Of a DNA stretch of 64,000 nt, positions 15,819 to 48,093 are shown one piece after another. Position 1 is the stretch's first letter. Every line of letters begins with the position of its first letter. The translations under genes and the position numbers were made by a program. A model generated the notes under the pieces. That model was given only the letters and a program-made list of their open reading frames with translations. It did no database searches and was not told where the DNA came from. Origin of the DNA: an uncultured Eubacteriales bacterium (GTDB taxonomy: Bacteria > Bacillota > Clostridia > Oscillospirales > CAG-382); NCBI GenBank assembly GCA_934446675.1, contig CAKSEL010000010.1, positions 19,861-83,860 on the forward strand. The letters run 5' to 3'.

Positions 15819-15855
15819 ATGAATTGTGGGTTATTTTGGATTGAGTTATGCTTGG

Positions 15856-15990: not shown

Positions 15991-15996
15991 ATTACC

Positions 15997-16156
15997 TTTT
16001 CCACAAATTAACATCGACTTTCCCACAAAATCCACAAAGAGTTATACACATCAAATCCACAGGAAATCAACAGGTTACGCATAAGGTTTTCCATAGGAAA
16101 AAAATTCTGGAATCAAGGCAGAATAAGCACTTCGGGAGTTGTCCACAGTTTCCACA
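15997..16156 (+). promoter_or_regulatory. Cluster of seven DnaA-box-like 9-mers, all in one orientation
   Basis: TTTTCCACA 15997, TTTCCCACA 16019, AAATCCACA 16028, TTATACACA 16042, AAATCCACA 16053, TTGTCCACA 16139, GTTTCCACA 16148. Each has 1-2 mismatches to TTATCCACA. Confidence 0.7.
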
Positions 16157-16180
16157 CCCTCTACTACTACTACTGCTTCC

Positions 16181-16212
16181 TATAAACAATATATATTATA
16201 TTATTTTTGTAT
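16181..16212. other. AT-rich tract (possible unwinding element) preceded by a (CTA)4 microrepeat
   Basis: TATAAACAATATATATTATATTATTTTTGTAT contains 2 G/C in 32 nt. CTACTACTACTAC lies at 16161-16173. Confidence 0.4.
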
Positions 16213-16245
16213 CGGATATAAAGAAAAAAGAAAGGATAGATAAAC

Positions 16246-25395: not shown

Positions 25396-25445
25396 CCGCG
25401 GTGTAATAAAAAGCAGAAACAGCAAAAAAGAAAAAACAGGAGAGT

Positions 25446-27569
25446 ATGGCAATGGAGAAATTTTACAGGCATAATAACCTTAAACTTCACTTTTCGGGAG
25501 AAACCGGAAGTGCGTTCGGCATGAAAAGACTTGAGACTGCCGATATGGAAAACGATAACCGCGAAGCAGAACCCAAAGCGCCGTTTATTCTGAGAACGGA
25601 TAATTTCAATGTCAATATGGAGGGCTGCGCAAGTATAGTTCCGGGTACGGAAAAGCTTGTAAACAGCATCGAGGATAAGGACGGAGTTACGCTCGTGTAT
25701 GAAAAGGGCGGACTTGAAATAACCGCAGTGCTTAAATATACAGACGGTGCTGACGTTGTAAGACAGACCGTTACCGTAAAGAATACGTCGGATAAGACTC
25801 AGAAACTCACTCATGTTTCAAGTGCGCTCATAAACGGACTTTGCACCGGAGGTCTGCTTAAAATTCATGATAAGAGAAAGGTCAAGGTTCATTACTGCCT
25901 GTCGCATTGGCAGGGAGAGGCTCAGTGGAGAACTTCAAACCTTGTCGATCTCGGAATTTATCATAAGACCGCGCACGCATGGGATACAATGGGATTCCGC
26001 GTAAGCTCGACAGGTTCGTGGAGCACGGGAAGATATTATCCTCTTGTAATGCTTGAGGACGCGGAATGCGGCAAGATCTGGTATATGGAGCTTGAGGGCG
26101 CATATGACTGGACAATAGAAGTCGGAAATGAAAACGGAAAAGACGGCGGCATGCTGTTTATGGAGGCAAACTGCGCAGATCAGAATCAGAACGGCTTTGT
26201 TTACGATCTTAAACCCGGAGAGAGCTATACCGCGCCGTCCTGCGTTTACGGCTGTACGACCGGCGGCTTTGACGAGGCTGTAAGAGAACTGCTCAAATAT
26301 AAGAGAGCGACGACAAAGGGACATTGGGACGCAGAAACTCCCGCTTGTTTCAATGACTATATGGACTGTATCTGGGGACAGCCCAGCCGCGAAAAGCTTG
26401 TTCCGCTCATAGACGCCGCGTCAAAAGCCGGCTGTGAGGTTTTCTGCATGGACGCAGGCTGGTACATAGGCTCGAACGGTCTTTGGCAGGTCGATAACAG
26501 TAAATACGGCGAAGGCGGACTTGCCGGAATTATAGATTATATAAAGCAGAAAAAAATGATACCCGGAATATGGCTTGAAATTGAGTCTATAACCAAAGGA
26601 ACGCCGCTTTATCAAAAGGATCTGCTGCTTTGCAGAAACGGCGAGATAGTAAATCCCGACAGAGCAAATGCGGACTTTACGAGAAAACCGGTTCGCGACT
26701 ATATTATGGGCGTGTTCGATATGCTCTACGGTATGGGTATACGCTTTGTAAAGAACGATTATAATATGTCCGTAATGTTGGGTTCCGATAAGGACGGCGA
26801 TTGCCCGGCAGAGGGACTGCGCAAGACGACAGACGCATTCTATTCGTTTATAGACGAAGTTAAGGCAAAGTACCCCGATCTCAAAATTGAAAACTGCGGC
26901 AGCGGAGCCATGAGATGCGATAACGGTACGCTTTCGCACTTTGAACTTCAGAGCACAAGCGACCAGGAATTTTATTATAATAATACCTCTATAATTTCCG
27001 GAACTCTCGCATACCTCGCACCCGAAAAGGCAGGTATCTGGTCTTATCCTTATCCGGTAAGCTTCTATGAAAACCGCGATAAAATAAATGTCTGGGAAAA
27101 TAAGGATTATGTCGCACAGCGCGCCGACGGCGAAGAAACCGTTTATAATATGGTCAACGCTCTTATGGGTACGCTCTATCTCTCCGGCAGAATAGAACAC
27201 GCAGATAAAAAGAACTTTGCACTCGTTAAAGAGGGCGTAAAGGCGTTTAAAAAGTACCGTAAACATAATGCGTCGGCTCACCCAGTGTGGCCCTGCGGTG
27301 TGTTTAACCTCGGCGACGATAGCTTTACAAGCCTCGGTCTTGTTGATGAAAAGAATAAGAAAATGACTCTCGCCGTGTGGAGACTTAATTCGTCCGAAGA
27401 TACTATCGTTGTAGATCTCTCTAAGTACCTTGCCGCAAACAGTAAAGTATCTCTCGCTTATCCCTCCGATCCTATGGGCGCTGAATTCGTATATAATCCT
27501 TTCTCTAAACTCCTTACCGTTAAACTCCCTAAACGCTGCTCCGCAAGATTCTTTGAAATAAGAATATAG
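25446..27569 (+). CDS. Alpha-galactosidase (GH36)
   Basis: FVKNDYNM and ENCGSGAMRCD motifs, ~700 aa. ATG 25452 has better SD spacing than ATG 25446. Confidence 0.85.
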   Translation: MAMEKFYRHNNLKLHFSGETGSAFGMKRLETADMENDNREAEPKAPFILRTDNFNVNMEGCASIVPGTEKLVNSIEDKDGVTLVYEKGGLEITAVLKYTDGADVVRQTVTVKNTSDKTQKLTHVSSALINGLCTGGLLKIHDKRKVKVHYCLSHWQGEAQWRTSNLVDLGIYHKTAHAWDTMGFRVSSTGSWSTGRYYPLVMLEDAECGKIWYMELEGAYDWTIEVGNENGKDGGMLFMEANCADQNQNGFVYDLKPGESYTAPSCVYGCTTGGFDEAVRELLKYKRATTKGHWDAETPACFNDYMDCIWGQPSREKLVPLIDAASKAGCEVFCMDAGWYIGSNGLWQVDNSKYGEGGLAGIIDYIKQKKMIPGIWLEIESITKGTPLYQKDLLLCRNGEIVNPDRANADFTRKPVRDYIMGVFDMLYGMGIRFVKNDYNMSVMLGSDKDGDCPAEGLRKTTDAFYSFIDEVKAKYPDLKIENCGSGAMRCDNGTLSHFELQSTSDQEFYYNNTSIISGTLAYLAPEKAGIWSYPYPVSFYENRDKINVWENKDYVAQRADGEETVYNMVNALMGTLYLSGRIEHADKKNFALVKEGVKAFKKYRKHNASAHPVWPCGVFNLGDDSFTSLGLVDEKNKKMTLAVWRLNSSEDTIVVDLSKYLAANSKVSLAYPSDPMGAEFVYNPFSKLLTVKLPKRCSARFFEIRI

Positions 27570-28282
27570 TTTTTGTCCCGAAGGGGTACGAGGAATACGC
27601 GCTTTCTTTTTAAAAAGAAAGCTGCAAAGAAAACGGTAGCCCTTAAATAAGAATAGAATTGTGGGATACTCCCTGCCGCCAGCTTGTTCCGTCCGCAGTC
27701 AAACAGCAGGACTGCGGACTCAGATATAAATAAGGTGCCGAAGTAAACTATGGAAATTGTGTACGGACGATAACTTTGAAAAGTGAAATTGCTCCGCACC
27801 AACAAAACAAAAAACTAACATCTGTAAAAGTCATCTCGCGCAAGCGAGCTGGGCAGAAAAACGAGTCCTGTTGACTGTGAAATAGCTCAAAAAAATTACT
27901 TTTTTGCACCCAAAATAAAGTTTACGCAGACCGCAGCGTGACATGGCATAAAAATCCGGAATTATGTCAACTAAACCGTGTTTAGATACCAACCCCATCG
28001 AGCAGTGCGGAGCATCTGCGAGCGATGATAGAGAATTTCGGAGGTGCGCGGAGGCTTTACCGACAATAGTTTGATGTGTGGAAACATAGCCACGCTTTCG
28101 CGGCGGCGTTTGAGCCGCGAAAATCTTTTGTTTACACTCTTTAGAGCGCGACTTTTTCGATTCCGAAAAGTCGGAGAATAAAGCTGCAAGTGGCAGTGAA
28201 TAATCCGTTTCCTCCTAAACTTAAGAAACAATCAGCCCAAATAATCAGTACCCTGAAAAAAGTAGAGAAAGGAAGATACCCG
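27570..28282 (+). repeat. Mosaic intergenic repeat, copy 8 (713 bp)
   Basis: A palindrome 27601-27622, hairpin B allele i 27691-27719, hairpin C with GCAA loop 27835-27848, V, D allele b, S3 and one E+F+Z unit. It ends GAAAGGAAGATACCCG just before TTG 28283. Confidence 0.93.
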
Positions 28283-29521
28283 TTGACGGAACAAATTTTC
28301 CAAAACGCTAAACGCGCGGCATATAACTGCGCAAACCTGCCGTCCGATGTAAAAAATAACGCGGTAAAAAATATAGCCGCAGTAATAAAACAAAACGCAA
28401 AAGAAATAATAGAGGCAAATAAAATCGACCTTGAAAACGCAAAAAAGACAGGAATTTCGGCGGCAATGCTCGATAGACTCCGCTTTGATGAGAAAAAGAT
28501 CGACGCCGTTGTAAACTCTCTGTTTAAAGTCGCGGCACTTCCCGACCCTGTCGGAACGGGTACCGTGCAGACGCGCCCGAACGGACTTGAAATTCAAAAG
28601 GTGCGTACGCCGCTCGGAGTTGTGGGTATAATCTTTGAGGCAAGACCTAATGTTACCGTTGACGCGGCAAGTCTTTGCCTGAAAACAGGTAACGCTTGTA
28701 TACTCCGCGGAGGAAAAGAGGCGGTAAATACAAACGTCGCACTCGGTAAGGCTATATCTCAGGCTTGCGTGCAGTCGGGCGTAGATGAATTTGCCGTACA
28801 GGTCGTTTCCGATACCTCGCGTGACAGCGCAAACGCTCTCATGACCGCAAACGGATATGTAGACGTGCTTATTCCGAGAGGCGGTAAAGGTCTTATAAAC
28901 AGCGTCGTAAAAAATGCAACCGTTCCGGTTATCGAAACCGGCGCAGGTAACTGCCATGTCTACGTAGACCGGTACGCTGACCTCGATATGGCGCTTAAAA
29001 TCACCGATAACGCTAAAAATCAGCGCCCGTCGGTGTGTAATGCCGCGGAAAGCCTGTTGGTTCACAGTAAAGTCGCACATGAATTTCTGCCGAAACTTAA
29101 AAAGCTGTTTGATGAAAGAAAAACCGAACTTCGCGGCTGTGACAGAACGCTTGAAATATTGCCGGGTATCGCGCACGCGTCGGACGAGGACTTTTATACC
29201 GAGTATAATGACTATATCATGTCGGTGAAGATCGTCGATAGCGTTCAAGAGGCTGTCGCGCATATAAATGAACATAGCACTCACCATAGCGAGACAATAA
29301 TTACCGAAAATATGCAGAATGCACAGTTCTTTACCCAAAATACGGATTCAGCGGCTGTCTATGTAAATGCCTCCACACGCTTTACCGACGGAGAAGAATT
29401 CGGACTCGGCGCGGAAATAGGAATAGCAACCCAGAAACTCCACGCAAGAGGTCCTATGGGACTTGAGGCGCTTACAACAGTAAAATATATCGTACACGGA
29501 AACGGACAGATAAGAAACTGA
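28283..29521 (+). CDS. proA: Gamma-glutamyl phosphate reductase
   Basis: GVVGIIFEARPNVTVDAASLCLKTGNACILRGGKEA and STRFTDGEEFGLGAEIGIATQKLHARGPMGLEALT. The ORF-track start at 28190 lies inside the repeat. TTG 28283 aligns with the ProA N-terminus and follows the SD. Confidence 0.93.
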   Translation: MTEQIFQNAKRAAYNCANLPSDVKNNAVKNIAAVIKQNAKEIIEANKIDLENAKKTGISAAMLDRLRFDEKKIDAVVNSLFKVAALPDPVGTGTVQTRPNGLEIQKVRTPLGVVGIIFEARPNVTVDAASLCLKTGNACILRGGKEAVNTNVALGKAISQACVQSGVDEFAVQVVSDTSRDSANALMTANGYVDVLIPRGGKGLINSVVKNATVPVIETGAGNCHVYVDRYADLDMALKITDNAKNQRPSVCNAAESLLVHSKVAHEFLPKLKKLFDERKTELRGCDRTLEILPGIAHASDEDFYTEYNDYIMSVKIVDSVQEAVAHINEHSTHHSETIITENMQNAQFFTQNTDSAAVYVNASTRFTDGEEFGLGAEIGIATQKLHARGPMGLEALTTVKYIVHGNGQIRN

Positions 29522-29552
29522 AATTTATAAATTAAAGGGGAGATTATAAATT

Positions 29553-31895
29553 ATGTTTTCAAAGAATTTCTACGGTGCGGGTAAGGAATACTGCACCTAC
29601 GACAAGCACGTAAACGCACCGTATCTGCGCCGCACATTTGAACTGGATAATATTCCGGAAACCGCGTCGCTCAAGATAACTTCTTCGGGTTTTTATGAAC
29701 TGTACATAAACGGAGAAAAGATAACAAAGTGTCCGCTGTCGCCGTATATCACAAATCCCGACAGCGTGCTGGTGTATGATACTTATGACCTTAAACCGTA
29801 TCTTAAAAGCGGAGAAAACTGCATAGGCATTATTCTCGGAAACGGACTTGTAAACTGCCTCGGCGGATTTATCTGGGACTTTGAGAAAGCGCCTTACAGG
29901 GCGGCACCGTCGGCAGCGTTTTACTTTGAGGCAAAGAACGGCGATAAGACCGTGCTCAGCTTTGAGGCGGACGAGAATATAAAAACTCACCCGTCGCCGA
30001 TACTCTTTGACGATCTCCGCAGCGGCGTTATATATGACGCGCGCCTTGAAATTCCCGACTGGTGTAAGCCGGGCTTTGACGATAAAGACTGGACGCCTGC
30101 AATAAAGGCGGATACTCTCAGAGGCGAGCCTGTCGATTTCGATACCGATAAGCTATCTTTCTCGGAAATACTCGACGCCGTAAGCTTTGAGCAAGGTAAG
30201 GAGCAGGAGGTTCAGATACCGAGCTGCAAACGTCCCATGCCGCCGTCTGTACCCGTTATGGAAAACGATAAACAGGGCTATGTGTACGATTTCGGCAAGA
30301 ACAGCGCCGGTATTCCGATTTTTAAGATCAAAGGAAAACCCGGACAGATGATAGCTCTTCAGTTTTCGGAATATTTCCGCGGCGGAGTTTATTCGTATGA
30401 GAATATAAACAGATTTTACCCCGACGGATATACCCAGAGAGATTATTATATCTGCCGCGGAGACGGCAGCGAGGAAACTTTCATGCCGCCGTTTACATAT
30501 CACGGAGCGCAGTACTGCACCGTTATCGGCGCGGAGAAAGAACAGCTCGATATAGATACGGTCAAATTCTGCGTTATACATTCGGATTTTGTTTCAAGAG
30601 GAGATTTTGACTGCTCGGACAGAATTGCGTCTGAACTGCAGAAAGCCGTAAGAAGAAGCGACCTTGCAAACTTCGTATATTTCCCGACAGATTGTCCGCA
30701 CCGCGAAAAGAACGGCTGGACGGGAGACGCGTCAATGTCTGCGGAACAGTTCACACTCAATTTCGGCGTTGAAAAGAGCTTAAAATTCTGGATGCGCCTT
30801 ATACGTCAGTCGCAGAGAATTGACGGCGCGATAGCCGGAATAGTGCCGACGTCGGGCTGGGGATATGCCTGGGGCAACGGTCCTATCTGGGACTCGGTAA
30901 TCGTCGAGCTGCCATATCAGACGTATAAATACCGCGGAGATATTTCGATGTTTAAGGAAAACGCGGATATGGTGCTGCGTTATCTTCATTACGCCGCGAA
31001 AAAGCGTAATAAGAGAGGGCTTTGCGCATTCGGACTTACCGACTGGGTTCAGCCGGGATATGACAGCGCAAATCCGACAACTCCTCAGGTCGTTACCGAT
31101 ACGTTTATGCTTGTAAATATCTGCCGGAAAGCCGGAATTATGTTCGCCGCGGCAGGACTTAAAGCCGAGAGCGACTATGCGTATGCGCTTATGAACGAGT
31201 ACAGAAACGCCGCAAGGGAATATCTTGTCGATCTCAATACAATGACCGCACTCGGAGAAACGCAGTGCGCACAGAGCGCCGCAATATACTATGAGATATT
31301 CGATAAGGCGGAAATTCCCGAGGCAGGGCGCAGACTTGTGGAAATCGTGCATAGAGCAAATGACGTTTTTGACTGCGGAATGCTCGGTGTAAGGCTTGTG
31401 TTTAATGTGCTTGCGGATCTCGGATATGCCGATCTTGCGTATAAGATGATCACGCGTTCCGATGTGCGCGGATATGGTATATGGATTGAAAAGTTCGGTA
31501 TCTCCACACTTCCCGAATCGTTCCATGATACTATCGACGGATTTACCACCTCTCTTGATCATCATTTTCTCGGTGATATTTCTGATTTCTTTATTACAAA
31601 AATTGCAGGTATTCGTGTAAATCCTAAACTTGATGACGCAAATTATGTCGAAATCAGACCGAATTTTGTTAAAACGCTTGACAGCGCCTGCGCACACTAC
31701 GATACCGTTTCCGGTAAAGTCTCGGTTTCCTGGAAACGCTCTCCCGACGGTACTGTCTCAGTTTCCGTCGATAAACCCGATGCGGTCAGAGTAAATCTCT
31801 TCCTCCCTAAAGGCTTTGTCTGCACTACTCCCGGTTTCTATCGCGGCAAATCAGCTCTCCTTAACTTCTCCGGCGTAACAGACGCAAAGGAGTAA
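29553..31895 (+). CDS. Alpha-L-rhamnosidase (GH78)
   Basis: YFPTDCPHREKNGWTGDA catalytic-domain motif. 780 aa. Confidence 0.88.
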   Translation: MFSKNFYGAGKEYCTYDKHVNAPYLRRTFELDNIPETASLKITSSGFYELYINGEKITKCPLSPYITNPDSVLVYDTYDLKPYLKSGENCIGIILGNGLVNCLGGFIWDFEKAPYRAAPSAAFYFEAKNGDKTVLSFEADENIKTHPSPILFDDLRSGVIYDARLEIPDWCKPGFDDKDWTPAIKADTLRGEPVDFDTDKLSFSEILDAVSFEQGKEQEVQIPSCKRPMPPSVPVMENDKQGYVYDFGKNSAGIPIFKIKGKPGQMIALQFSEYFRGGVYSYENINRFYPDGYTQRDYYICRGDGSEETFMPPFTYHGAQYCTVIGAEKEQLDIDTVKFCVIHSDFVSRGDFDCSDRIASELQKAVRRSDLANFVYFPTDCPHREKNGWTGDASMSAEQFTLNFGVEKSLKFWMRLIRQSQRIDGAIAGIVPTSGWGYAWGNGPIWDSVIVELPYQTYKYRGDISMFKENADMVLRYLHYAAKKRNKRGLCAFGLTDWVQPGYDSANPTTPQVVTDTFMLVNICRKAGIMFAAAGLKAESDYAYALMNEYRNAAREYLVDLNTMTALGETQCAQSAAIYYEIFDKAEIPEAGRRLVEIVHRANDVFDCGMLGVRLVFNVLADLGYADLAYKMITRSDVRGYGIWIEKFGISTLPESFHDTIDGFTTSLDHHFLGDISDFFITKIAGIRVNPKLDDANYVEIRPNFVKTLDSACAHYDTVSGKVSVSWKRSPDGTVSVSVDKPDAVRVNLFLPKGFVCTTPGFYRGKSALLNFSGVTDAKE

Positions 31896-32730
31896 GGAGT
31901 ACGCAGGAGAACGCGCTTTCTTTTTAAAAAGAAAGCTGCAAAGAAAACAATAGCCCCTAATTTAGAAAAGAATTGTGGGATACTCTCTGCCGCCAGCTTG
32001 TACCGTCCGCAGTCAAACAGCAGGACTGCGGACTAAGATGTAAACAGGTGCGTGAGTAAACTATGGAAATTGTGTACTAATGGCAGCTTTGGAAAGTGAA
32101 ATAATTACGCACAAACGAAATAAATCCCAAATTTCACTTTGCACCCACGAAACAAAAAACTAAAATTCAGCAAAGTCATCTCGCGTAAGCGAGCTGGGCA
32201 GAAAAACGAGCCCTGTTGACTGCAAAATAACTTGAGAAAATTACTTTTTTGCACTCGAAATAAAGTTTACGCAGACCGTAACGTGACATGGCATAAAAGT
32301 TTGGCATTATGTCAACTAAACCGTGTTTAGATACCAACCCCATCGAGCAGTGCGGAGCATCTGCGAGCGATTTCGCCGTAGGTTACGTGGACGCACCGTA
32401 GTAACAAGTGGTCGTTTTGGTAAGGGTTTTGGAGGGGAAGAATGTGCGTTTAGGGCGAAATCCTCCACGTAGCCACGCTTTCGCGGCGGCGTTTGAGCCG
32501 CGAAAATCTTTTGTTACCTTTTCGATTCCGAAAAGTAAGCATATAAAGTCGCACTTTGAAGAAAGTAATCCGTTTCCGCCCAAACCAAGCAAAAATAAGC
32601 CAAACGTAAAACATCTTTTCACTTTTCGATTCCGAAAAGAGGAGATATAAGGTTGCAATTGGAAGTGAATGTCCCGCTTCAGCCCAAAATAATCAAAAAA
32701 AGAAAATAGAAGAAGAAAAGAGGAGTCCCC
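31896..32730 (+). repeat. Mosaic intergenic repeat, copy 9 (835 bp)
   Basis: A palindrome 31915-31936, hairpin B allele i 32005-32033, C, V, D allele b, S2, E and two Z units. It ends AAGAGGAGTCCCC just before GTG 32731. Confidence 0.93.
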
Positions 32731-33756
32731 GTGAAGTTCTCGGTAGTAGGAATCCAGCACCCGCATATATACGGAATGACAAGTGAACTTGTCGCACATG
32801 GCGCAGAACTCGTCTCGGCGTATGATAGCGATAAGATAGCACTTGACGCGTTCGTAAAAAAGTACCCGGGCGTAAAGCCGGTAAGATGCGAAGAAGAAAT
32901 ACTTGAAGATAAAAATGTTCAGCTCGTGGCAGGCGCCGCCGTTACGTCCGAAAGAGCCGATATAGGTATACGCACAATGAACGCAGGTAAAGATTATTTT
33001 ACCGATAAAGGTCCGTTTACGTCGTTTGAACAGCTTGAAAGAGTAAAGCAGACAGTAAAGCAGACCGGAAAAAAGTATATGGTTTGTTATAGCGAAAGAC
33101 TTCAGAATTCAAGCGCTGAAATGGCAGGAATGATGATAAAGCGCGGAGATATAGGAAAAGTCGTTCAGGTCGTAAGTATGGGACCGCACAGACTTAACGC
33201 AAAGTCAAGACCGGAGTGGTTCTGGCAAAAAGAAAAGTTCGGCGGTATACTCGATGATATATGCTCGCATCAGTTTGAACAGTTTTTGTATTTCACAGGC
33301 GCAGATAAGGCAAGCGTGGTTTCGGCAAGAGTCGAAAACTTCGCACACCCCGAGTACCCCGAATTTGAAGATTTCGGTGAAGCAAGCCTTGTCGCCGATA
33401 ACGGGGCGTCGGGATACGTAAAGGTCGATTGGTTCACACCCGACGGACTTGATACGTGGGGCGACGGCAGAGCTTTTGTAATAGGCACGGACGGATATAT
33501 CGAACTCAGAAAAACCATAGATATATGCGGAAGACCGGGTGCAAATCACCTGTTTGTGACTACAAATAAGCAAAAAACAACGTATGTTGACGCAAATTCT
33601 TTCGGACACCCGTTCTTTGACGCGTTTATAAAGGACTGCCAAGAACGTACCGAAAACGCAATGACTCAGGAACACGTCTGGGAGAGCGCAAGACTTACGC
33701 TTGAAGCTCAGCAAAAAGCCGATGAATTCAGAAAAAAACTAAAAAATATGCTTTAA
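32731..33756 (+). CDS. Gfo/Idh/MocA-family oxidoreductase
   Basis: 341 aa. Family-level resemblance by eye (N-terminal Rossmann-like half, C-terminal alpha/beta domain). GTG start. Confidence 0.8.
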   Translation: MKFSVVGIQHPHIYGMTSELVAHGAELVSAYDSDKIALDAFVKKYPGVKPVRCEEEILEDKNVQLVAGAAVTSERADIGIRTMNAGKDYFTDKGPFTSFEQLERVKQTVKQTGKKYMVCYSERLQNSSAEMAGMMIKRGDIGKVVQVVSMGPHRLNAKSRPEWFWQKEKFGGILDDICSHQFEQFLYFTGADKASVVSARVENFAHPEYPEFEDFGEASLVADNGASGYVKVDWFTPDGLDTWGDGRAFVIGTDGYIELRKTIDICGRPGANHLFVTTNKQKTTYVDANSFGHPFFDAFIKDCQERTENAMTQEHVWESARLTLEAQQKADEFRKKLKNML

Positions 33757-33779
33757 AGTAAAAAAGGCGGTAAACATCA

Positions 33780-34598
33780 ATGGAAAAAGCGCATAACAGA
33801 GTTGTCGTAAAGGTAGGAACCTCGACGCTTACATACGATAACGGCGGAATCAATATCAAGACAATAGATAAGCTTTGTCAGGTGCTGTCGGCTCTGAGAA
33901 ATTCGGGATATGAAATAATCCTTGTTTCGTCGGGAGCGATAGCTGTGGGCGTAAATAAAATGAGACTTGCCGAACGCCCGAAAGAGATAAGAATGAAACA
34001 GGCTGCTGCTGCCGTAGGTCAGTGCGAGCTTATGCACCTGTACGATAAAATGTTCAGCGAATACGGAAATATGGTGGCTCAGATACTGCTTACAAGCGAG
34101 GACTTCGAGGCGGATGATAAAAGAGAAAATCTGCGCAATACCTTTTCCGCACTGCTCGAAAACGGCATTATTCCGATAGTCAATGAAAACGACTCGGTAA
34201 GCCATACCGAAATAGAGTCGCCCAAAAAGCTGTTCGGCGATAACGATACGCTCAGCGCCGTTGTTGCGGTAATGTGCGGCGCGGATAAGCTTATAATACT
34301 TTCGGATATTGAGGGACTGTACGATAAAGATCCGCATAAATGTGCCGACGCAAAGCTGATAAATACCGTTGACAGCATAGACGGCGATATTATGTCGCTG
34401 GCAAACGGCGCAGGCACCGCAAGAGGAACCGGCGGTATGATAACAAAGCTCGACGCGGCAAAGCTTGTAACGTCGCACGGGATAGATATGTATATAAATC
34501 TCGGCAAATATCCCGAAAGACTGTATGAAATTCTGTCCGGCGTCGATACCGGAACGCGTTTCAAGGCTTGTAAAAATATCGGGAACGATACTCTCTGA
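33780..34598 (+). CDS. proB: Glutamate 5-kinase (short form, no PUA domain)
   Basis: VVVKVGTSTLT, ILVSSGAIAVG and FGDNDTLSA motifs. 272 aa. Confidence 0.93.
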   Translation: MEKAHNRVVVKVGTSTLTYDNGGINIKTIDKLCQVLSALRNSGYEIILVSSGAIAVGVNKMRLAERPKEIRMKQAAAAVGQCELMHLYDKMFSEYGNMVAQILLTSEDFEADDKRENLRNTFSALLENGIIPIVNENDSVSHTEIESPKKLFGDNDTLSAVVAVMCGADKLIILSDIEGLYDKDPHKCADAKLINTVDSIDGDIMSLANGAGTARGTGGMITKLDAAKLVTSHGIDMYINLGKYPERLYEILSGVDTGTRFKACKNIGNDTL

Positions 34599-34628
34599 AT
34601 AAACTTTGCGGATAAAAAGGCATAATTT

Positions 34629-34670
34629 AAGCCCTGTACGTTTTTTGCAGCGTACCGGGCTTGTTTTGTT
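34629..34670. terminator. Bidirectional terminator candidate between convergent proB and polA
   Basis: AAGCCCTGTACG (34629-34640) pairs with CGTACCGGGCTT (34651-34662) at 11/12 positions. It is followed by GTTTTGTTTC on the + strand and preceded by an A-rich tract. Confidence 0.7.
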
Positions 34671-34688
34671 TCTGACCTGATATAATTT

Positions 34689-37241
34689 TTAATGACACTC
34701 GTCCCAGTTATATCCGTCCTTAACGTCAGCACAGAGCTTTACGCGTAGCTTTGCGGCGTTTTCCATTTCCTCTTTGAGAATAATTTTCGCGCGTTCCGCC
34801 TCGTTTTCGGGACATTCGAGAATAAGCTCGTCGTGAACCTGTAAAATGAGCTTTGATGACAGCTTTTCGGCTTTAAGACGGTTGTAAACGTTTATCATCG
34901 CGATTTTGATGATGTCCGCGGCAGTGCCCTGTATCGGCGCGTTCATCGCGACTCTTTCGCCGAACATTCTCTGCATGAACGCCTTGCTTTTGAGTTCGGG
35001 AATGTATCTTCTTCTGCCGTAAAGCGTCGTAACAAAGCCGTCGTCGCGGGCTTTCTGCTTTTCTCCGTCGAGATAAGCTTTTATGCCGGGATATTTTTCA
35101 AAGTAGGTTGCAATATACTGCGCAGCCTCTTTTTTTGTGACCTTTATATCGCCTGCAAGAGAAAAGTCGCTTATGCCGTAGATAATTCCGAAGTTTACGG
35201 CTTTCGCTTTCTTTCGCATTTCGGGCGTAACTTTGTCTTTCGGAACTCCGAACACGTGAGAGGCGGTGGAGGTGTGAATGTCCGCGCCGCTTTCAAAGGC
35301 GGAGCACATATTGTCGTCGTCCGAGATTGCCGCCATTATGCGAAGCTCTATCTGCGAGTAGTCAGCGTCAACAAGAACGTGACCCTCTTTCGGGATAAAC
35401 ACTTTTCTGAATTCCCTGCCCTCTTTTGTGCGCACGGGAATGTTCTGAAGGTTGGGATCGGCGCTTGAAAGACGTCCGGTAAGAGTGAGCGCCTGTTTGA
35501 AGTTTGTGTGCAGCCTTCCGTCGGAGCTTACCGCCTTTAAAAGACCGTCGGCATATGTGCTTTTGAGCTTTGCGACAAGACGGTACTCGGTGATCTCGTC
35601 GATTATGGGACTGTACGGGCGCAGCTTTTCAAGAGTGTCGGCGTCCGTTGAGTAACCGCTCTTGGTCTTTTTGCCGTGCGGCAGCAGCATTTTTTCAAAC
35701 AGGACCTCGGAGAGCTGCTTGGGCGAGTTGATGTTGAACTCGGTCCCGGCTATTTCGTATATTTCATTTTCGCGTTTTTGCTGAGCGTCGGACAGCAGAC
35801 TGCCGTATTCCGACAGTTTTTTGCGGTCTATTAAAAATCCCGTTTTTTCCATGTCGGCAAGCACAAACGAAAGCGGAAATTCAATGTTATAAAGCAGATC
35901 ATGCTGACCGTTTTTCTCTATGGTTTCGGAAAGCTCCTCTTTGAGTTTAAGGATCGCCGTAACTTCGAGAGTTTTTCTTGTGCGTGTGTCGTTTATGTCG
36001 GCGCCGGCGCTGCCGTAGACCGTGCACAGACGTTCTTCAGTTATTACGCCTGACGGATCGGCAACGTAGGACGCAAGCATTACGTCAAAAATTTCGGCTT
36101 TTACGCTGTCAAGGCTTATTCCGATTGAATCGAGATACAAAAGCTTTGATTTAAGGTCGTGCAGCGCTATATTGTTGTTAGCACGGCAGAATATCTTTTC
36201 GAGATTGTCTTTTGTGAGAGGGAGATCAAATATCTTGCCGCCGTCCGTCTTTATATATATAATAGAATCGGTTTCGTCGTATGCAAAGGAAAAGACGGTT
36301 TCGCCTATTTCGGAAAAGTCGGAAACATCGGTAATCTCGGGAAAGAGCGGCAAGGTTTCGGTTTTTTCCGCCGAACCGGATTCGCGCAAAGAGAGCCTGT
36401 CGATTACGGAATTAAGCTCCAGATCTTCGCAGAGATCCAAAAGTTCTTTTTTTTGTATTCCGTGATATTCAAGGTCTGAAAGCGACACGCCTATCGGTGC
36501 GTCAAGCTTGATTTCGGCTAAAAATCTGCTTTCAAACGCGCTGTCCCTGCCGTCGGTGAGCTTTGCCTTTACTGCTTTTGTAATGAGGTCGGTGCTTTCA
36601 AGATTTTCGTAGAGATTTTCGAGCGTGCCGAACTTTTTGACAAGATCGACGGCGGTTTTTTCGCCTATTCCGCGCACGCCCGGAATATTATCTGACGTAT
36701 CGCCCATGAGAGCTTTGACTTGTATCAGCTGTTTGGGCAGAAGTCCGTATTTTTGTTCTATGAGCGCGGTGTCGGTAAGAATAGTCTCTTTTGTGGAAAC
36801 GTATCTTACGAAAACGTTTTGATTTATAAGCTGATACGAGTCGCGGTCGCCGGTTACGATATAGACCTGAGTGCCGTCATCGGCAAAAGAGCTTAGCGTG
36901 CCGAGAATATCGTCAGCCTCAAAGCCTTCGCAGGTTATTGTGTGAAGTCCGAGAAAAGCGGCGGCTTTTTTTGCGTCCTCAAACTGTTCCGCAAGCTCCG
37001 GCGGCATACCCGTGCGGTTGGCTTTATAGTAGGAACACGCTTTATGGCGGAACGTCGGGCTTTTCAGGTCGAACGCTATTGCCGCATAGTCCGGCTTTAC
37101 TTCGCTTATTTCGCGGTTAAGCATATTTATAAATCCGTACACCGCGTTAGTGTTTCTGCCGTCTCTTGTAGTCAGCGGCTTTACGCCGTAAAATGCGCGG
37201 TTTACGAGGCTGTTGCCGTCTACGGCTAATACTTTGGACAC
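34689..37241 (-). CDS. polA: DNA polymerase I
   Basis: 850 aa with the 5'-nuclease N-terminus (LAVDGNSLVNRAFYG) and polymerase motifs DYSQIELRIMA and QVHDELILE. GTG start preceded by AAGAGGAACTCCCT. Confidence 0.96.
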   Translation of the reverse strand: MSKVLAVDGNSLVNRAFYGVKPLTTRDGRNTNAVYGFINMLNREISEVKPDYAAIAFDLKSPTFRHKACSYYKANRTGMPPELAEQFEDAKKAAAFLGLHTITCEGFEADDILGTLSSFADDGTQVYIVTGDRDSYQLINQNVFVRYVSTKETILTDTALIEQKYGLLPKQLIQVKALMGDTSDNIPGVRGIGEKTAVDLVKKFGTLENLYENLESTDLITKAVKAKLTDGRDSAFESRFLAEIKLDAPIGVSLSDLEYHGIQKKELLDLCEDLELNSVIDRLSLRESGSAEKTETLPLFPEITDVSDFSEIGETVFSFAYDETDSIIYIKTDGGKIFDLPLTKDNLEKIFCRANNNIALHDLKSKLLYLDSIGISLDSVKAEIFDVMLASYVADPSGVITEERLCTVYGSAGADINDTRTRKTLEVTAILKLKEELSETIEKNGQHDLLYNIEFPLSFVLADMEKTGFLIDRKKLSEYGSLLSDAQQKRENEIYEIAGTEFNINSPKQLSEVLFEKMLLPHGKKTKSGYSTDADTLEKLRPYSPIIDEITEYRLVAKLKSTYADGLLKAVSSDGRLHTNFKQALTLTGRLSSADPNLQNIPVRTKEGREFRKVFIPKEGHVLVDADYSQIELRIMAAISDDDNMCSAFESGADIHTSTASHVFGVPKDKVTPEMRKKAKAVNFGIIYGISDFSLAGDIKVTKKEAAQYIATYFEKYPGIKAYLDGEKQKARDDGFVTTLYGRRRYIPELKSKAFMQRMFGERVAMNAPIQGTAADIIKIAMINVYNRLKAEKLSSKLILQVHDELILECPENEAERAKIILKEEMENAAKLRVKLCADVKDGYNWDECH

Positions 37242-37640
37242 AGGGAGTTCCTCTTTTCTTCTTCTTTTCTTTGATTTATGTTGGGCTTGTTTTCTTTTGT
37301 TTTGGGCGGAAATTGGTTAGTCACTGCCATGTGCAAGCGTATACCTCCGCTTTTCGGAATCGAAAAGACGGGCAAAAGATTTTCGCGGCTCAAACGCCGC
37401 CGCGAAAGCGTGGCTTTATTTTCCACACAAAATTGTATCGTCGGAAAAACATCTTCGCGCCCCCGAAGTCTGCAATCTTCGCTCGCAGACGCTCCGCGCT
37501 GCTCGATATGGGGTTCTGTACAAAGCTAAACTATTTCGGGGAAAGTGTTATTTTTTATATACTCATGCAGTCAACAGGACACACTTTTACGACCAGCTCG
37601 CTGTCGCGAGATGACTACGGCTGAATTTTACTTTTGTGTT
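37242..37640 (-). repeat. Mosaic repeat copy 10a: 5'-truncated copy in minus orientation, 3' end at the polA start
   Basis: On the reverse strand: hairpin C (GACA loop) 37597-37610, D allele b, S3, E hairpin, F hairpin 37350-37367, Z core, then SD and the polA GTG. Confidence 0.9.
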
Positions 37641-37680
37641 TGGTAAACTAAACTTGCAAGTTCGCTCTAAAACGTAATAT

Positions 37681-38156
37681 ACCGCACCAAATTGCACTCA
37701 CAAAGACGTGACACGGCAGAAAAACAGTATTATGTCAACCAAGTCATTGCTAAGAAACCAACCCCATCGAGCAGTGCGAAGCATCTGCGAGCGATTTTGC
37801 CGTAGGTTATGTGGACGCACCGTAGTAACAAGTGGTCACTTTGGAAAAAGCGTTTGAGGGGTAAAAAGTCATGTTTAGGGCAAAATCCTCCACGTAGCCA
37901 CGCTTTCGCGGCGGCGTTTGAGCCGCGAACGGCTTTTGTTTACGCTCTTTAGAGTGCAACTTTTTCGCCGTCGAAAAGTTGGAGAATAGAGCTGCACATG
38001 GAAGTGGATTATCTTTTTAGCCCCAAATAAGCAACACTCAGCCAACCGCAGAACATCTTTCAGCTTTTCGATTCCGAAAAGCGTCGGTATAAAGTTGCAC
38101 TTTGAAGAAAATTCCCCGTTTCCGCCCAAATCGACCTCAAAATATCTTCAATCTTC
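37681..38156 (+). repeat. Mosaic repeat copy 10b: 5'-truncated copy in plus orientation
   Basis: Starts in module V, then D allele b, S2, E, F-variant hairpin 37957-37981, Z, and a second F+Z. It ends at the stop codon (38157-38159) of the minus-strand HD gene. Confidence 0.9.
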
Positions 38157-38744
38157 TCAGTTCAGCGAATCCAGCGACATTTCAAACGCACCTGCAAAGT
38201 GCTCCATAAAATACTTAAGCTCCGGACATGACTGCATGTGCTCGTCAAGCGCGCGTTTGGTTGAGTTGAGAGCGTCGCGGAACTCGGAGTTTCCGTTTTT
38301 GTACTCGTCAACGCATTTGAGATACGCGCATAGCTTGTCCGCAGCCTTTACAATGCGCTTTAAGTCGGCGCTTTGCTCAAATTCAAGAATTTCTGCATAG
38401 TTTTCTTTCAGATCTTCCGGAAGTTTTGACAGCGCGTTCTCCACCGCGTTCTTTTCAAGCGATTTGTAACTTTCGCGTATGGTGTCGTTAAAATATTTGA
38501 CCGGCGTCGGCAGATCTCCCGTGAATATCTCGCTCATGTCGTGGTACAGGGCGCAGAGCGCGGTCTTTCCGCAGTCGTAATTCTTGCCGAATACAGTGTT
38601 GCCTATCTCGGCAAGCGCGTGCGCAAGCATGGAACACTGTGCGCTGTGCTCAAGTAAGTTTTCGCTCGTGAGATTTCTCATAAGTCCCCAGCGGTTTATG
38701 TATTTCATTCTGAATGCAAGCGCAAAAAATGAGTAGTTTTCCAT
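38157..38744 (-). CDS. HD-domain 5'-deoxynucleotidase (YfbR-like)
   Basis: EHSAQCSMLAHAL and LYHDMSEIFTGDLPTPVK HD motifs. 195 aa. Confidence 0.88.
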   Translation of the reverse strand: MENYSFFALAFRMKYINRWGLMRNLTSENLLEHSAQCSMLAHALAEIGNTVFGKNYDCGKTALCALYHDMSEIFTGDLPTPVKYFNDTIRESYKSLEKNAVENALSKLPEDLKENYAEILEFEQSADLKRIVKAADKLCAYLKCVDEYKNGNSEFRDALNSTKRALDEHMQSCPELKYFMEHFAGAFEMSLDSLN

Positions 38745-44616: not shown

Positions 44617-46017
44617 ATGAAATCCGGACTTGTTTTGGTGTTTTTCGGACTTGTTTTTCTGATAAATCCGAACTTTAATATGTTCGACATATTGCCGGAC
44701 TTTATAGGATTTGCGCTTGTGTGCGCAGGACTTGCAAAATACGCGCTGATTGACGAAAATCTGTCGAGTGCAAAGAAATGTTCGATGTACTGCGCGTTTC
44801 TGTCTGCCGCAAAGCTTGTTTTTTCGCTGTGGACGAATGCCGGGCATACAGATTATCTTCTGCCGTTCGGGTTTGCCTTTGCGGTGCTTGAAATAATCTT
44901 TATGACGGCGTTTTTCAGAAACCTCTGCACGGGATTTGACTATATGGCTCTGAGAGCGTCGGAAGAAGGCGCAAGAACAAAGCTGTCGAACCTGTTTGCA
45001 ATGTCGGCGATATATACGTTCGGCACGCGCATACTCGATTTTGTACCGCAGATATTTTCGCTCGCCGTGCAGAACGAGGAGCTTGATTTAAGCTATAATG
45101 CGCATAGAAAAATGCCGCTTTCGGCGGTAAAGCCGTATGTTATGCTTGTCTGCATGGCGGCAAGCCTTGCACTCGGAGTGCTTTTGGTGATTGTCGCGTC
45201 GGGAGCATTGAAAAAACTGCGGAAAAGTGAGAAATTTATTGGTTTTGCGCAGCAGAAATATGCAAACGACGTCGAAAATGACCGTGAAAGATACGTAAGC
45301 CTTGTAATGCCGGGCGTTTTTACGCTCTGCGTGATTGCGTCGGTGTTCCTGTACGATTTTGAGATAGGCGGATTGAATTTGCTGCCGACGGTTCTGGCGC
45401 TGCCGTTTTTTGCCGCAGCTTTTGCGAGAATGAAAAAGGTCGATGCAAATATAAAAACTCCGTATGTGACATATATTGCTGCGGCTGTATTCTGTGCCGC
45501 ACAGTATGTGCTTATGTACGCGGTAAATGTCGGCGTGGGCGAGCTTTATGCGGAAAGTGCCGTTACTTACGGCGCGGCGTTAAGACTGTCGTCGGTCGGC
45601 GGTACGGTATTGACGGTTGCCGTTTGCGTGCTTTGCGCGGTGTTTACGGCGCTCGGTGCGGTTAAAACACTTAACGCGCTCGGTACTGTCTGCAAGGATA
45701 ACCGCAGAACGGCGGCTCTCGGACGTATTTTTCTCTGCAAGATTATGGTCTGCGCGGTCTGCTTTGCCGGATTTGTGAGCAATTCGCTTAGAATAGCCGT
45801 TCTGTATCTCGGCAACAATGCCGCAGTGCGTGAATTTCTCCTTGTACGCGGTAATATTAAGTCCGAGCCGCAGTATCTTTCATATCTTTCAAACCGCAGC
45901 GTCGCTCTCTTTCAGCGCCTCGATGCTCTCAGTGAATTTGTCGGTATCGCTTTCTTTGTCCTTGCTTTTTTCACTGTTCTCAACATCGCCGCCGCTCAAA
46001 ACAAATCCGAAGGATAG
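44617..46017 (+). CDS. Multi-pass membrane protein, unknown function
   Basis: 466 aa with ~10 hydrophobic helices. Confidence 0.7.
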   Translation: MKSGLVLVFFGLVFLINPNFNMFDILPDFIGFALVCAGLAKYALIDENLSSAKKCSMYCAFLSAAKLVFSLWTNAGHTDYLLPFGFAFAVLEIIFMTAFFRNLCTGFDYMALRASEEGARTKLSNLFAMSAIYTFGTRILDFVPQIFSLAVQNEELDLSYNAHRKMPLSAVKPYVMLVCMAASLALGVLLVIVASGALKKLRKSEKFIGFAQQKYANDVENDRERYVSLVMPGVFTLCVIASVFLYDFEIGGLNLLPTVLALPFFAAAFARMKKVDANIKTPYVTYIAAAVFCAAQYVLMYAVNVGVGELYAESAVTYGAALRLSSVGGTVLTVAVCVLCAVFTALGAVKTLNALGTVCKDNRRTAALGRIFLCKIMVCAVCFAGFVSNSLRIAVLYLGNNAAVREFLLVRGNIKSEPQYLSYLSNRSVALFQRLDALSEFVGIAFFVLAFFTVLNIAAAQNKSEG

Positions 46018-46820
46018 GAGTACGCAAGAATACGCGCTTTCTTTTTAAAAAGAAAGCTGCAAAGAAAACAGTAGCCCTTAATTTAGAAAAGAATTGCGGA
46101 ATACTCTCTGCCGCCAGCTTGTACCGTTCGCAGTCGAACAGCAGGACTGCGAACTCAGATGTGAGCAGGTGCTGAAGTAAACTATGGAAATTTAGTACAA
46201 AGGGCAACTTTGGAAAGTGATATTACTTCGCACCACCCAAACATAAAACTAAAATTCAGCAAAGTCATCTCGCGTAAGCGAGTTGGGCGGAAAAACGAGT
46301 CCTGTTGACTGCATAATAACGCATAAGAATTGCATATTTGAGCCTTAAATATAGTTTACGCAGACCGCAACGTGACATGGCATAAAAGTTGAACTGTGTT
46401 AACCAATTTGAGCGTAGACACCAGCCCCATCGAGCAGTGCGGAGCATCTGCGAGCGATTTTGCCGTAGGTTACGTGGACGCACCGTAGTAACAAGTGGTC
46501 ACTTTAGAAAAATCGTTTGAGGGGTAGAAAGTCATGTTCAGGGCAAAATCCTCCACGTAGCCACGCTTTCGCTGCGGCGTTTGAGCGGCGAAAATCTTTT
46601 GCGACTTTTTCGATTCCGAAAAGTCGGTGAATAGACTTGCAAGTGACAGTGGATAATCCTTTTCCGCCTAAAATAATCAAAATTTGATTAAACATAAAAC
46701 ATCTTTCAGCTTTTCTCCGTAGAAAAGCGTCAGTATAGGGTTGCACATGGAAGTGGATTATCCGTTTCCGCCCAAACCAAGAAACAATCAGCCAAGAAAA
46801 AAGAAAGGAAGTCTCTCACC
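46018..46820 (+). repeat. Mosaic intergenic repeat, copy 12 (803 bp)
   Basis: A palindrome 46036-46057, hairpin B allele ii 46126-46154, C, V, D allele b, S2, E (U.G allele) and two Z units. It ends GAAAGGAAGTCTCTCACC just before GTG 46821. Confidence 0.93.
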
Positions 46821-47030
46821 GTGGAACTTAAAGCCTTCGGCGTAGGCGATACGCTGAATATGAAAAAACCGCACGCGTGTGATTCAAAATCAAAAAAGAT
46901 GCTCGTGCTCATGGCAGGCAGTGACGTAAAAGTGCGCTGTGAGGGCTGCGGACGTGAGATGATCCTGCCGAGAGTTAAACTCGAAAGAAGTATAAAAAGC
47001 GTTACCCGAAAGGAAGACATGAATGTTTGA
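46821..47030 (+). CDS. DUF951-family small protein
   Basis: 69 aa. [37 protein letters not shown] matches the DUF951 pattern by eye. GTG start. Confidence 0.75.
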
Positions 47031-48093
47031 AAACCTCGAAGAAGCAAAAAAACATTTTGAGCAGATAAATGATATGCTCATGACTCCCGAAGTCGTAAAT
47101 GATACCGAAAAGTATAAAAATCTCATGAAAGAGCATAAAAACCTCTCCCCGATCGTCGAAAAGTATAATGAATATAAAACGACAAAGAATAATTACGATC
47201 AGGCTTGTGAGCTTGCGGACGAAACCGGCGATAAAGAGCTTAAAGAACTTGCCGAAACCGAAATGAAAGAATGTAAGGAAAAGCTCTCGGAAATCGAGGA
47301 GGAATTGAAAATTCTCCTGCTGCCGCGCGATGAGGACGATGATAAAAACGTAATCGTCGAAATAAGGGCAGGTACCGGCGGTGAAGAAGCCGCGCTTTTC
47401 GCACATAGTATTTTCCGTATGTACTCAATGTACGCCGATAGAAAACGCTTTAAAATCGAGGTTCTTAATATAAACGAAACCGAACTCGGCGGAATAAAGG
47501 AAGTCGCGTTTATGGTAGAGGGCGCAGGCGCATTTTCAAGATTTAAGTTTGAAAGCGGCGTTCACCGCGTTCAGCGCGTGCCCGAAACCGAAACCCAGGG
47601 ACGTATACACACCTCGGCAATTACAGTCGCAGTGCTTCCCGAAGCTGAGGACGTCGAAGTTGAAATCAATCCCAATGACCTTGAAATAGATACCTACCGC
47701 AGCGGCGGCGCAGGAGGTCAGCACGTAAATAAGACCGATTCGGCAATAAGAATAACCCATAAGCCGACAGGTATAGTCGTCGAGTGCCAGGACGAGCGCA
47801 GCCAGTTCAAAAACCGCGATAAGGCAATGAAAATGTTAAAGGCAAAGCTGTTGGATATGGAAAAGACAAGACAGCATAACGAGCGCGCAAGCGAGAGAAA
47901 GAGCCAGGTCGGTTCGGGCGACAGAAGCGAGAGAATAAGAACGTATAATTATCCGCAGAGCAGACTTACCGACCATAGAATAGGTCTTACGCTGTATAGC
48001 CTTGAAAATATCCTTGACGGAGATCTCGACGGCGTTATCGACGCATTGATTACAGCCGACAGAGCCGAAAAACTGCAGAACAGCGAGTTGTGA
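47023..48093 (+). CDS. prfA: Peptide chain release factor 1
   Basis: GGQ motif [18 protein letters not shown] and the codon-recognition loop [17 protein letters not shown]. It overlaps the DUF951 gene by 8 nt. Confidence 0.95.

Follow-up and report, generated by a model that had tools for sequence, protein, structure and literature searches.

The closest known kinds of sequence to the repeat described here are the REP/BIME mosaics, including REPIN doublets, the BOX elements of pneumococcus and the NIME and Correia elements of Neisseria. Among the Firmicutes, the Bacillus cereus group carries the intergenic repeats bcr1–bcr18, which are 100–400 nt long; some of them are mobile and some have a conserved RNA structure. 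The locus considered here lies between polA and the gene of an HD-domain protein, in an origin-proximal window (the whole 64-kb stretch of DNA that was analysed) from an uncultured human-gut Clostridia species. A first-pass annotation, made from the sequence alone, had noticed two partial repeat copies lying back to back at this position and had taken them as a hint of a 3′-anchored copying or recombination mechanism. Our favoured explanation, to which we give a probability of roughly 0.6, is that the region is an inverted doublet of a lineage-specific, non-coding, modular intergenic repeat that has been reshaped by DNA recombination.

The repeat family and the polA–HD spacer

The family is a large, lineage-specific, modular, hairpin-rich non-coding intergenic repeat. 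A canonical element is 650–1000 nt long and reads T-B-C-V-X-W-Y-U(1–3), where T is a perfect 22-nt palindromic hairpin; a tandem array of decamers is carried at the 5′ end. The element starts 10–50 nt past the stop codon of the upstream gene, in the orientation of that gene, and ends 20–70 nt ahead of the next start codon. Window genes are all housekeeping, and elements were found in 14 of the intergenic regions between them, where this ∼1-kb, eight-module non-coding element fills ∼10 kb, or ∼16% of the 64 kb (summed module-HMM coordinates). T adjoins the stop codon of a co-oriented gene in every case except one (L023), in which ∼160 nt separate it from the start of a gene in the opposite orientation. 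Convergent regions carry full copies (L009 and L021), and no modules were found in the divergent regions sampled. Copies are mosaic and 70%–90% alike, and no young copies were seen. The T2 variants (17428–17481 and 50455–50508) are inverted U-hairpin fragments at the 5′ end. T itself was considered as the reverse complement of the U hairpin, the two forming terminal inverted repeats, and this was set aside as only marginally supported, the likeness being weak (p ∼ 0.01; 23 of 2000 shuffles as good).

The 26-mer of the T hairpin was found in a single species among 185,579 GTDB representatives (UMGS1387) and in one stray contig. The MAG named "uncultured Clostridiales bacterium UMGS1387" is ∼95% identical to the window. 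Exact matches to the window were also seen in ENA and Hadza gut metagenome contigs. Two syntenic relatives (L036 and L037), whose HD proteins are ∼73% identical, have spacers of 0–130 nt, and the module HMMs gave no match in either. The absence of the family from syntenic relatives with compact spacers indicates a lineage-specific invasion of intergenic spacers. In our reading of the coordinates, the sites of the family match the larger spacers of the relatives; these empty spacers are too diverged to align with the window. No match to a full copy was obtained by blastn in phage and plasmid collections, and nothing relevant was found in the literature on UMGS1387 or on comparable mosaic repeats in Clostridia.

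From the polA start to the stop codon of the HD gene, the spacer is made up of two partial, oppositely oriented copies whose 3′ ends face outward (Table 1). BLAST and the module HMMs agree on this layout, which is the one first described. The full copy at 22696–23565 matches the minus arm in two blocks (its positions 428–673 against 37284–37515, E = 4.6e-40, and 243–362 against 37527–37641), and the full copy at 46018–46800 matches the plus arm (353–759 against 37706–38130, E = 9.7e-99). Both partial copies are real and far above chance. Modules were resolved with an alignment of 14 copies (A1) and with module HMMs (nhmmer). As had been reported, the minus copy starts at module C and ends at the SD and the GTG start codon of polA (37241, minus strand). 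The plus copy does begin in module V and end at the HD stop codon (38157); its start had been placed at 37681, and V is complete from 37669. The ∼40 nt of "unrelated" sequence thought to separate the copies shrinks to ∼23 nt (37646–37668) and is a junction module, S, conserved at four loci. The short V of the minus arm groups with copies 4682, 17352, 20512 and rc(1–678) in A1, and Y of the same arm folds at −15.5 kcal/mol and was flagged as terminator-like. The plus arm is antisense to the HD gene.

Table 1. Features of the polA–HD spacer (window coordinates) and loci sharing its central junction
Feature	Position	Strand	Basis or remark
polA, 850 aa, downstream gene served by the minus arm	34689..37241	-	ORF; Pfam 5_3_exonuc_N, 5_3_exonuc, DNA_pol_A
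Minus partial copy, S-C-V-X-W-Y-U	37242..37668	-	terminates at polA start
U-unit tail and polA SD leader	37242..37288	-	sequence; alignment A1
Module U, minus arm: hairpin CTTTTCGATTCCGAAAAG plus TTGCAC...CCGCCCAAA	37289..37367	-	nhmmer E 3.6e-19
Module Y, minus arm: 9-bp GC-rich hairpin, then U-rich tract	37373..37416	-	nhmmer E 9.7e-16
Variable module W, short "W2" variant	37417..37477	-	alignment A1; X-to-Y segment classes
Module X (CATATCGAGCAGCGCGGAGCGTCTGCGAGCGA), minus arm	37478..37511	-	nhmmer E 1.2e-8
Module V, short variant	37512..37558	-	A1 columns 497-541
Module C, complete; invariant GTCCTGTTGACTG and GNRA-capped hairpin	37559..37645	-	nhmmer E 1.1e-20, HMM 3-88
Junction module S, including 12-nt palindrome AACTTGCAAGTT at 37651-37662	37646..37668	.	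homologous junction, alignment A4
Plus partial copy, V-X-W-Y-U-U	37669..38156	+	terminates at HD-gene stop codon
Module V, long variant, complete; plus-arm start	37669..37760	+	nhmmer E 1e-12, HMM 3-102
Module X, plus arm	37761..37796	+	nhmmer E 4.7e-10
Variable module W, long "W1" variant	37797..37892	+	94.8% identical to window 46460-46555
Module Y, plus arm	37893..37939	+	nhmmer E 8.5e-16
First U unit, plus arm	37959..38041	+	nhmmer E 4.7e-20
Second U unit, plus arm	38064..38134	+	nhmmer E 2.9e-16
U tail adjoining HD stop codon	38135..38156	+	sequence
HD-domain (YfbR-like) 5′-deoxynucleotidase gene, upstream gene	38157..38744	-	Pfam; source names
Junction homolog	L035:62-244		downstream of 200-aa gene after secA; window there has T-B-U
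Junction homolog	L059:3986-4166		
Junction homolog	L060:3360-3573		DHHW-dnaN spacer of another strain

The shared junction and the truncation bias

Comparisons beyond the window were made in ∼590 kb of partly redundant metagenome contigs, often broken at these repeats. Element regions were clustered by their flanks into 55 loci, and orthology was judged from the flanks. The C(−)-S-V(+) junction of the polA–HD doublet aligns through its centre with three independent loci (alignment A4; Table 1), and S also aligns in the orthologs L018 and L041. Polarity is alike at all four junction loci: the arm that starts with V is antisense to the upstream gene and faces its stop codon, and the C-bearing arm is directed at the downstream gene. 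The V-starting arm abuts the stop codon at three of them; at L059, where polarity was judged by eye and the arms lie 350–500 nt from called genes, there is a gap of 500 nt. S has large indels between loci and, by eye, resembles the last ∼20 nt of module B (A1 columns 309–330). Because the junction is homologous at four independent loci, it must have been inherited or copied as a unit and does not reflect two separate truncations. The composite is best described as a canonical, gene-oriented element that carries an inverted V-to-U segment in place of T and of most of B.

A second type of doublet, in which S and the strong hairpin H (ACTCTGTGCA...TGCACAGAGT, then U5; −18.2 kcal/mol) join C(−) to C(+), occurs at 12231–12975 of the window and in L027, L005, L042 and L045. 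The centres of doublets hold palindromes, which are the U hairpin, H or AACTTGCAAGTT, and the inverted arms are 300–570 nt long. Arms start at three discrete module boundaries, namely the first positions of C, V or U. A recent inverted duplication was rejected, the two arms being no more alike than any two copies; with an identity of only 76%–94% in conserved modules, no pair of arms represents a fresh inverted duplication that would show how the doublet forms.

The back-to-back arrangement at polA–HD is also present in the UMGS1387 ortholog (L018) and in two further assemblies (L041 and L047). The doublet thus occupies this locus in at least two lineages that are ∼95% identical, and its HD-proximal arm is found in a third, sister lineage (L035, HD protein 91% identical), in which antisense U-U-U-Y follows the HD stop codon and the contig then ends. 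The same arrangement in orthologs indicates that the doublet was inherited and that its content is unstable. Indeed, W of the plus arm is a different variant in L018, L041 and L047, with flanking X and Y modules that are identical between the window and L018, and the Y–U spacers differ between these two. The plus arm holds two U units in the window and three in L035; that of L018 lacks the terminal U units and has one partial U followed by a different tail.

Since the polA–HD spacer is a synteny break, a chromosomal inversion was considered, with the doublet as a by-product of a breakpoint formed by recombination between oppositely oriented copies. In L036 and L037 the HD gene is directly followed by HAD-melibiase-Aldedh-rhamnosidase-GFO (and AA_kinase in L037) in one orientation, and in the window the same block (24733–34598) is inverted relative to HD, with polA between them. 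A crossover between inverted copies should, however, yield two complete hybrid copies and not truncated arms, and it predicts an element at the other breakpoint, where the Dxr–HAD spacer is only 18 nt. The origin of the doublet by such a crossover was rejected on these two grounds. The doublet junction is also found at loci with unchanged gene order (the locus of the 200-aa gene in L035 and DHHW-dnaN in L060), and the inversion reading as a whole is highly improbable.

Among the 55 loci, ∼22 are canonical and ∼10 are large doublets, and another three to four are mini doublets, U(−)U(+), sharing one hairpin; inverted arrangements were seen at about 13 of about 45 informative loci. T-B-U or T-B-C-U forms occupy three loci, and at five others they occur as variants between strains. 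Derivatives with an internal deletion and both ends retained (T-B-U, U(−)U(+)) are common, and forms with T/B but without U are rare; apparent T-T-B-C copies in L024 and L060 are internal deletions that still retain the U tail. Two further window copies that had been listed as 5′-truncated, 3b (12432–12975) and 4 (15905–15989), keep their 3′ ends and are in fact the sense halves of inverted doublets, the module HMMs placing their U(−) partners at 12244–12326 and 15843–15922, respectively. The statement that no copy keeps its 5′ end while lacking its 3′ end holds within the window and fails beyond it: L005 5619–5724 consists of T and 60 nt of B with nothing further and faces a plus arm, as L046 confirms. 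The asymmetry itself is real and persists in the wider sample, where many arms lack T/B and few lack U, and 3′-truncated copies are not as common as 5′-truncated ones.

One-sided 5′ truncation had been compared with target-primed reverse transcription (TPRT), so that each arm would be an independent, incompletely reverse-transcribed insertion copied from its 3′ end. The excess of arms without 5′ modules over arms without U is what this predicts, and all elements are polar. The arm starts, however, fall at module boundaries and are not scattered, the junction is common to four loci, and the 3′ end, which should be fixed, ranges, at one and the same locus in different lineages, from a single partial U unit to three. 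T-B-U forms retain both ends, and the copies, being mosaic and 70%–90% alike, include no young ones. Rfam 15 at gathering thresholds gave no match in the whole window, and at E up to 5 the regions 45900–47100 and 37100–38300 gave no group II intron and only four chance-level matches to unrelated families. The Pfam records of the window genes include no reverse transcriptase (RVT) or transposase family, and tblastn of the 590 kb, covering part of the genome, with crude reverse transcriptase consensus queries returned nothing below E = 1, a weak test. Weak consensus queries for Y1, RAYT and other transposases likewise had no tblastn match in the 590 kb. No target-site duplication was visible at the outer ends of 10 doublets, where homology fades gradually and the boundaries are uncertain. 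Reverse transcription of each arm is hardly credible, and the family lacks the defining features, among those tested, of both TPRT elements and actively moving MITEs.

The bias toward copies lacking 5′ modules has a cause other than reverse transcription. It can arise from an inherited doublet together with internal deletions, which removes the retroelement story; in our description, the asymmetry combines the inherited doublet form with internal deletions that leave the ends next to the genes intact, an account that describes the excess of T/B-lacking arms and does not fully explain it. Of the two mechanisms proposed in the first-pass annotation, recombination survives and 3′-anchored copying does not. 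Its mechanistic inference was not supported, and its overall interpretation was partly supported. The polA–HD doublet is genuine and, within a repeat family that is itself unusual, an ordinary structural variant.

Remodelling, and possible mobility and transcription

In the comparison between strains, all 10 loci were occupied and none was empty, and 9 of the 10 differed in internal length, by 33–680 nt. The positions of the elements thus stay fixed between strains, yet nearly every locus compared has been remodelled. Two routes of change were identified. The first is patch exchange between dispersed copies, or gene conversion. W of the plus arm has its 94.8% identical counterpart in another copy of the same genome (Table 1), and a swap of the W patch between identical flanks is what ectopic gene conversion would leave. 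The second is deletion between short direct repeats or palindromic hairpins. The DHHW-dnaN locus of the window holds only U(−)U(+), at 15843–15983, sharing one hairpin; a full doublet is present at this locus in strain L060, and the flanks align base for base with the window (alignment A5). Being palindromic, the two U hairpins count as direct repeats even where the units are inverted, and when the stretch between them is deleted a single shared hairpin remains, just as is seen in the window. The dnaN-gyrA copy of L060 has lost 439 nt, with the junction, placed by eye, at a 10-nt direct repeat, CCCAAAATAA, that is common to the start of V and the tail of U.

Two other comparisons were left out of the evidence. 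The pair L054 and L005 resembles a canonical-to-doublet conversion at one locus, and it was not used because only one flank is shared; it could be a rearrangement or an assembly chimera, and some other junctions in the sample could be chimeras too. The pair L045 and L029 was set aside for the same reason.

The composite has a fixed junction and a fixed polarity relative to the flanking genes, recurs at several loci and, at polA–HD, is inherited. Read from HD to polA, it comprises antisense U-U-Y-W-X-V, the junction S, probably the last ∼20 nt of B, and sense C-V-X-W-Y-U. The doublet may have originated by strand switching or by inverted conversion at a palindromic hairpin, and would then have reached the other loci as a unit. 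The gene-proximal ends may survive because deletions end at hairpins, or because these ends carry signals that the neighbouring genes need. No copy compared here preserves a conversion or a strand switch in progress.

The spread of the doublet to other loci could equally reflect transposition by some enzyme. The doublet might be a foldback or MITE-like unit with long inverted arms, bounded by inverted U hairpins and moved by a transposase, with T-B-U and U(−)U(+) as its internal-deletion derivatives. The identical type of junction at four loci, the loss of the middle with retention of both ends, the inverted U-hairpin fragments of the T2 variants and the absence of the family from syntenic relatives, which implies an invasion at some time, would all fit such a unit. 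It is opposed by the strains, in which 0 of 10 loci were empty, by the lack of a discernible target-site duplication at outer boundaries that are themselves fuzzy, and by the lack of near-identical copies, the arms being 76%–94% alike. T matches the reverse complement of U only marginally (23 of 2000 shuffles scored as high), and no Y1, RAYT or other transposase was seen in the 590 kb, a weak test. The elements, moreover, follow gene orientation strictly and occupy the whole spacer, ending exactly at the stop codon on one side and the RBS on the other. A transposase-moved unit is therefore doubtful. A bolder proposal appears similarly doubtful, namely that the doublet is the active form of a new non-autonomous element, bounded by inverted U hairpins and colonising the spacers between transcription units in one gut Clostridia lineage, which would either be mobilised or copied via its palindromic hairpins by a host or other enzyme or encode multi-copy structured RNAs of ∼250 nt transcribed divergently from the centre.

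A further reading is a back-to-back pair of functional transcription units. Each arm would be a gene for a non-coding RNA that is driven from C or S, extends from V to Y and stops at the Y hairpin, and the minus arm would double as the leader of polA. In module C, TTGACT is invariant and its distance to the start of V is constant, and Y, in which a U-rich tract comes after a 9-bp GC hairpin, resembles a weak intrinsic terminator. Pairing in the hairpins is kept by compensatory changes: across 24 variants, pairing in the U hairpin reaches 96.4%, G-C gives way to U-A in four distinct sequences, and 0 of 500 shuffles attain the score. The B stem folds at −18.9 kcal/mol with visible double changes, and double changes are seen by eye in the B and C stems; the U·G pairs of the hairpins lie on the sense strand. 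Canonical copies, moreover, leave no space for another promoter ahead of the next gene. A σ70 promoter in module C was nevertheless rejected: by eye, in A1, no conserved −10 element stands 16–18 nt past TTGACT, and promoter consensus scans flagged module C in none of the scanned copies, whereas TTGACG-17-TATAAT promoters are present nearby. S, which would have to drive the plus arm, has large indels between loci. There is no Rfam match, and RNAalifold, run per module, gave local hairpins only, with little covariation and a weak signal beyond a few hairpins. Folding of the whole element gives z ∼ −3 on both strands alike. Divergent non-coding RNA units are accordingly unlikely. Maintained hairpins, a terminator-like Y and the lack of room for a promoter favour a transcribed, intercistronic role, and we would guess, with low confidence, that the hairpin-rich spacer serves as a terminator, stabiliser or insulator between cistrons in the transcript of the sense strand.

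Comparison with known repeat systems

The family is an unusually large and dynamic intergenic mosaic repeat in an uncultured human-gut Clostridia species, in which ectopic gene conversion and hairpin-mediated deletion might be studied as they occur in nature. Metagenome assemblies break at it, many contigs having their end in the T hairpin, and for this reason it is relevant to MAG quality.

Class C group II introns share polar insertion, gene orientation and a place just downstream of gene ends; their ORF-less forms are of similar size, and 5′-truncated copies are known. In contrast, the present family gave no Rfam match to domain V/VI or D1–D4 at E up to 5, no reverse transcriptase was found in the part of the genome covered, and it has discrete arm starts and a variable 3′ end. 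Compared by description only, it differs from bcr1–bcr18 in being larger and mosaic, in its doublet form and in the decamer tandem array at its 5′ end.

Pneumococcal BOX and Neisseria NIME/Correia elements resemble this family in being intergenic, hairpin-rich and modular, an inner or terminal module varying in copy number; they are co-transcribed with their neighbours, as by analogy the present elements probably are. They are, however, shorter than ∼350 nt, inverted repeats define their termini, and TA duplications accompany the Correia elements. In the family described here no target duplication or defined termini could be discerned at the fading outer boundaries, and the positions are fixed between strains.

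The REP/BIME sequences of enterobacteria and pseudomonads, with their REPIN doublets, span 35–300 nt, whereas the unit here is 650–1000 nt with at least eight modules. The REP unit of ∼35 nt has a conserved 5′ tetranucleotide, and a GTAG-type signature is absent here; REP sequences are associated with RAYT, none of which was found in the 590 kb (a weak test). There is no sequence similarity, and the present family is known from one Clostridia lineage only. The organisation is nonetheless alike. Both are extragenic and hairpin-based, lie after stop codons between co-directional or convergent genes and are missing from divergent promoter regions, and the present family has both the extragenic downstream placement and the imperfect palindromes kept by compensatory change that characterise REP/BIME. 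Analogous to REP/BIME, it forms mosaics of several motif types in a set order, in which inverted unit pairs are standard and the number of tandem units is variable.

Probable replication-origin signals beside the elements

Two perfect Firmicutes-type parS sites (TGTTTCACGTGAAACA) are present in the window, where none would be expected by chance. One of them follows the M23-peptidase stop codon and precedes the first element's T hairpin, T being the palindromic module near the upstream stop codon. The pair suggests that the window is origin-proximal. DnaA-box-like 9-mers (TTTTCCACA, TTATACACA, AAATCCACA, TTGTCCACA and others) are clustered immediately 5′ of dnaN and immediately past the mini doublet U(−)U(+), in which two inverted U units have one common hairpin; this cluster is probably oriC. 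The GC-skew minimum is not at the DnaA-box-like cluster but near 3–5 kb of the window, at the change of gene orientation. In another strain (L060), a complete doublet of ∼800 nt adjoins the DnaA-box-like cluster upstream of dnaN.

Features and contig ends (window positions unless a contig is named)
Feature	Location
parS sites	662-677; 2809-2824
DnaA-box-like cluster	15984-16245
Promoters at H-type doublets	13030-13075; L027:1862-1895
Synteny break	24733-37241
Module B examples	22770-22931; 46071-46232
Tandem array 5′ of T, examples	22696-22734; L024:30-100; L027:4790-4852; L018:6740-6802
Contig ends	L003, L004, L007, L012, L016, L019, L023, L024, L030

Synteny and assembly breaks

Synteny with L036 and L037, relatives that lack the family, is broken downstream of the HD gene. 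In both relatives HD is followed by HAD-melibiase-Aldedh-rhamnosidase-GFO in one orientation throughout, with AA_kinase added in L037; in the window the HAD-to-GFO block is inverted relative to them, and polA lies between the block and HD. One inversion of [polA...HAD] would explain the break, judging from a gene-order comparison of the HD-flanking block in which the place of polA is taken from the window only.

Many contigs of the UMGS1387 MAG terminate inside a T hairpin, and the T motif is absent from its seven largest contigs. Short-read assemblies are broken by the repeats, and contigs may thus misrepresent the true genomic distribution of the family. The 75 nt flanking T are identical in L012 and L030; the latter, binned as 'Collinsella', is probably mis-binned. 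On one side of the strong hairpin H, L054:4420-5110 and L005:4830-5770 share 99.7% identity; their divergence begins precisely at H, beyond which they differ in upstream genes and in 5′ architecture (T-B-H-C... versus T-B′-inverted arm-S-H-C..., S being the junction module). The cause is a rearrangement between strains at the centre of the doublet or, alternatively, a chimeric assembly.

Tandem arrays, promoters and module B

Every T hairpin has on its 5′ side, in the interval that separates it from the upstream stop codon, a variable-number tandem array of 10–14-nt units (consensus RGRRTACGMR; for example, GGGGTACGAA ×6, GGAGTACGAA ×5 and GAAGAATACGCGCC ×4), whose copy number varies among loci and among strains. 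Many units resemble Shine-Dalgarno sequences.

The H-type doublets of the window and of L027 each have a canonical promoter (TTGACG-17-TATAAT and TTGACG-17-TATTAT) between the last U and the following gene; at the canonical copies and the polA arm, just 20–70 nt remain ahead of the start codon.

From its sequence, module B looks like a structured RNA, and an Rfam match for it was not found. Its 5′ stem, CCCYTAA/TTRKGGG, is perfect in some copies. A 10-bp hairpin shows several double changes (GTCCGCAGTC/GACTGCGGAC, GTTCGCAGTC/GACTGCGAAC, GTCAGCCRCC/GGCGGCTGAC), and a mini palindrome co-varies as AGTAAACT or AGCAAGCT.
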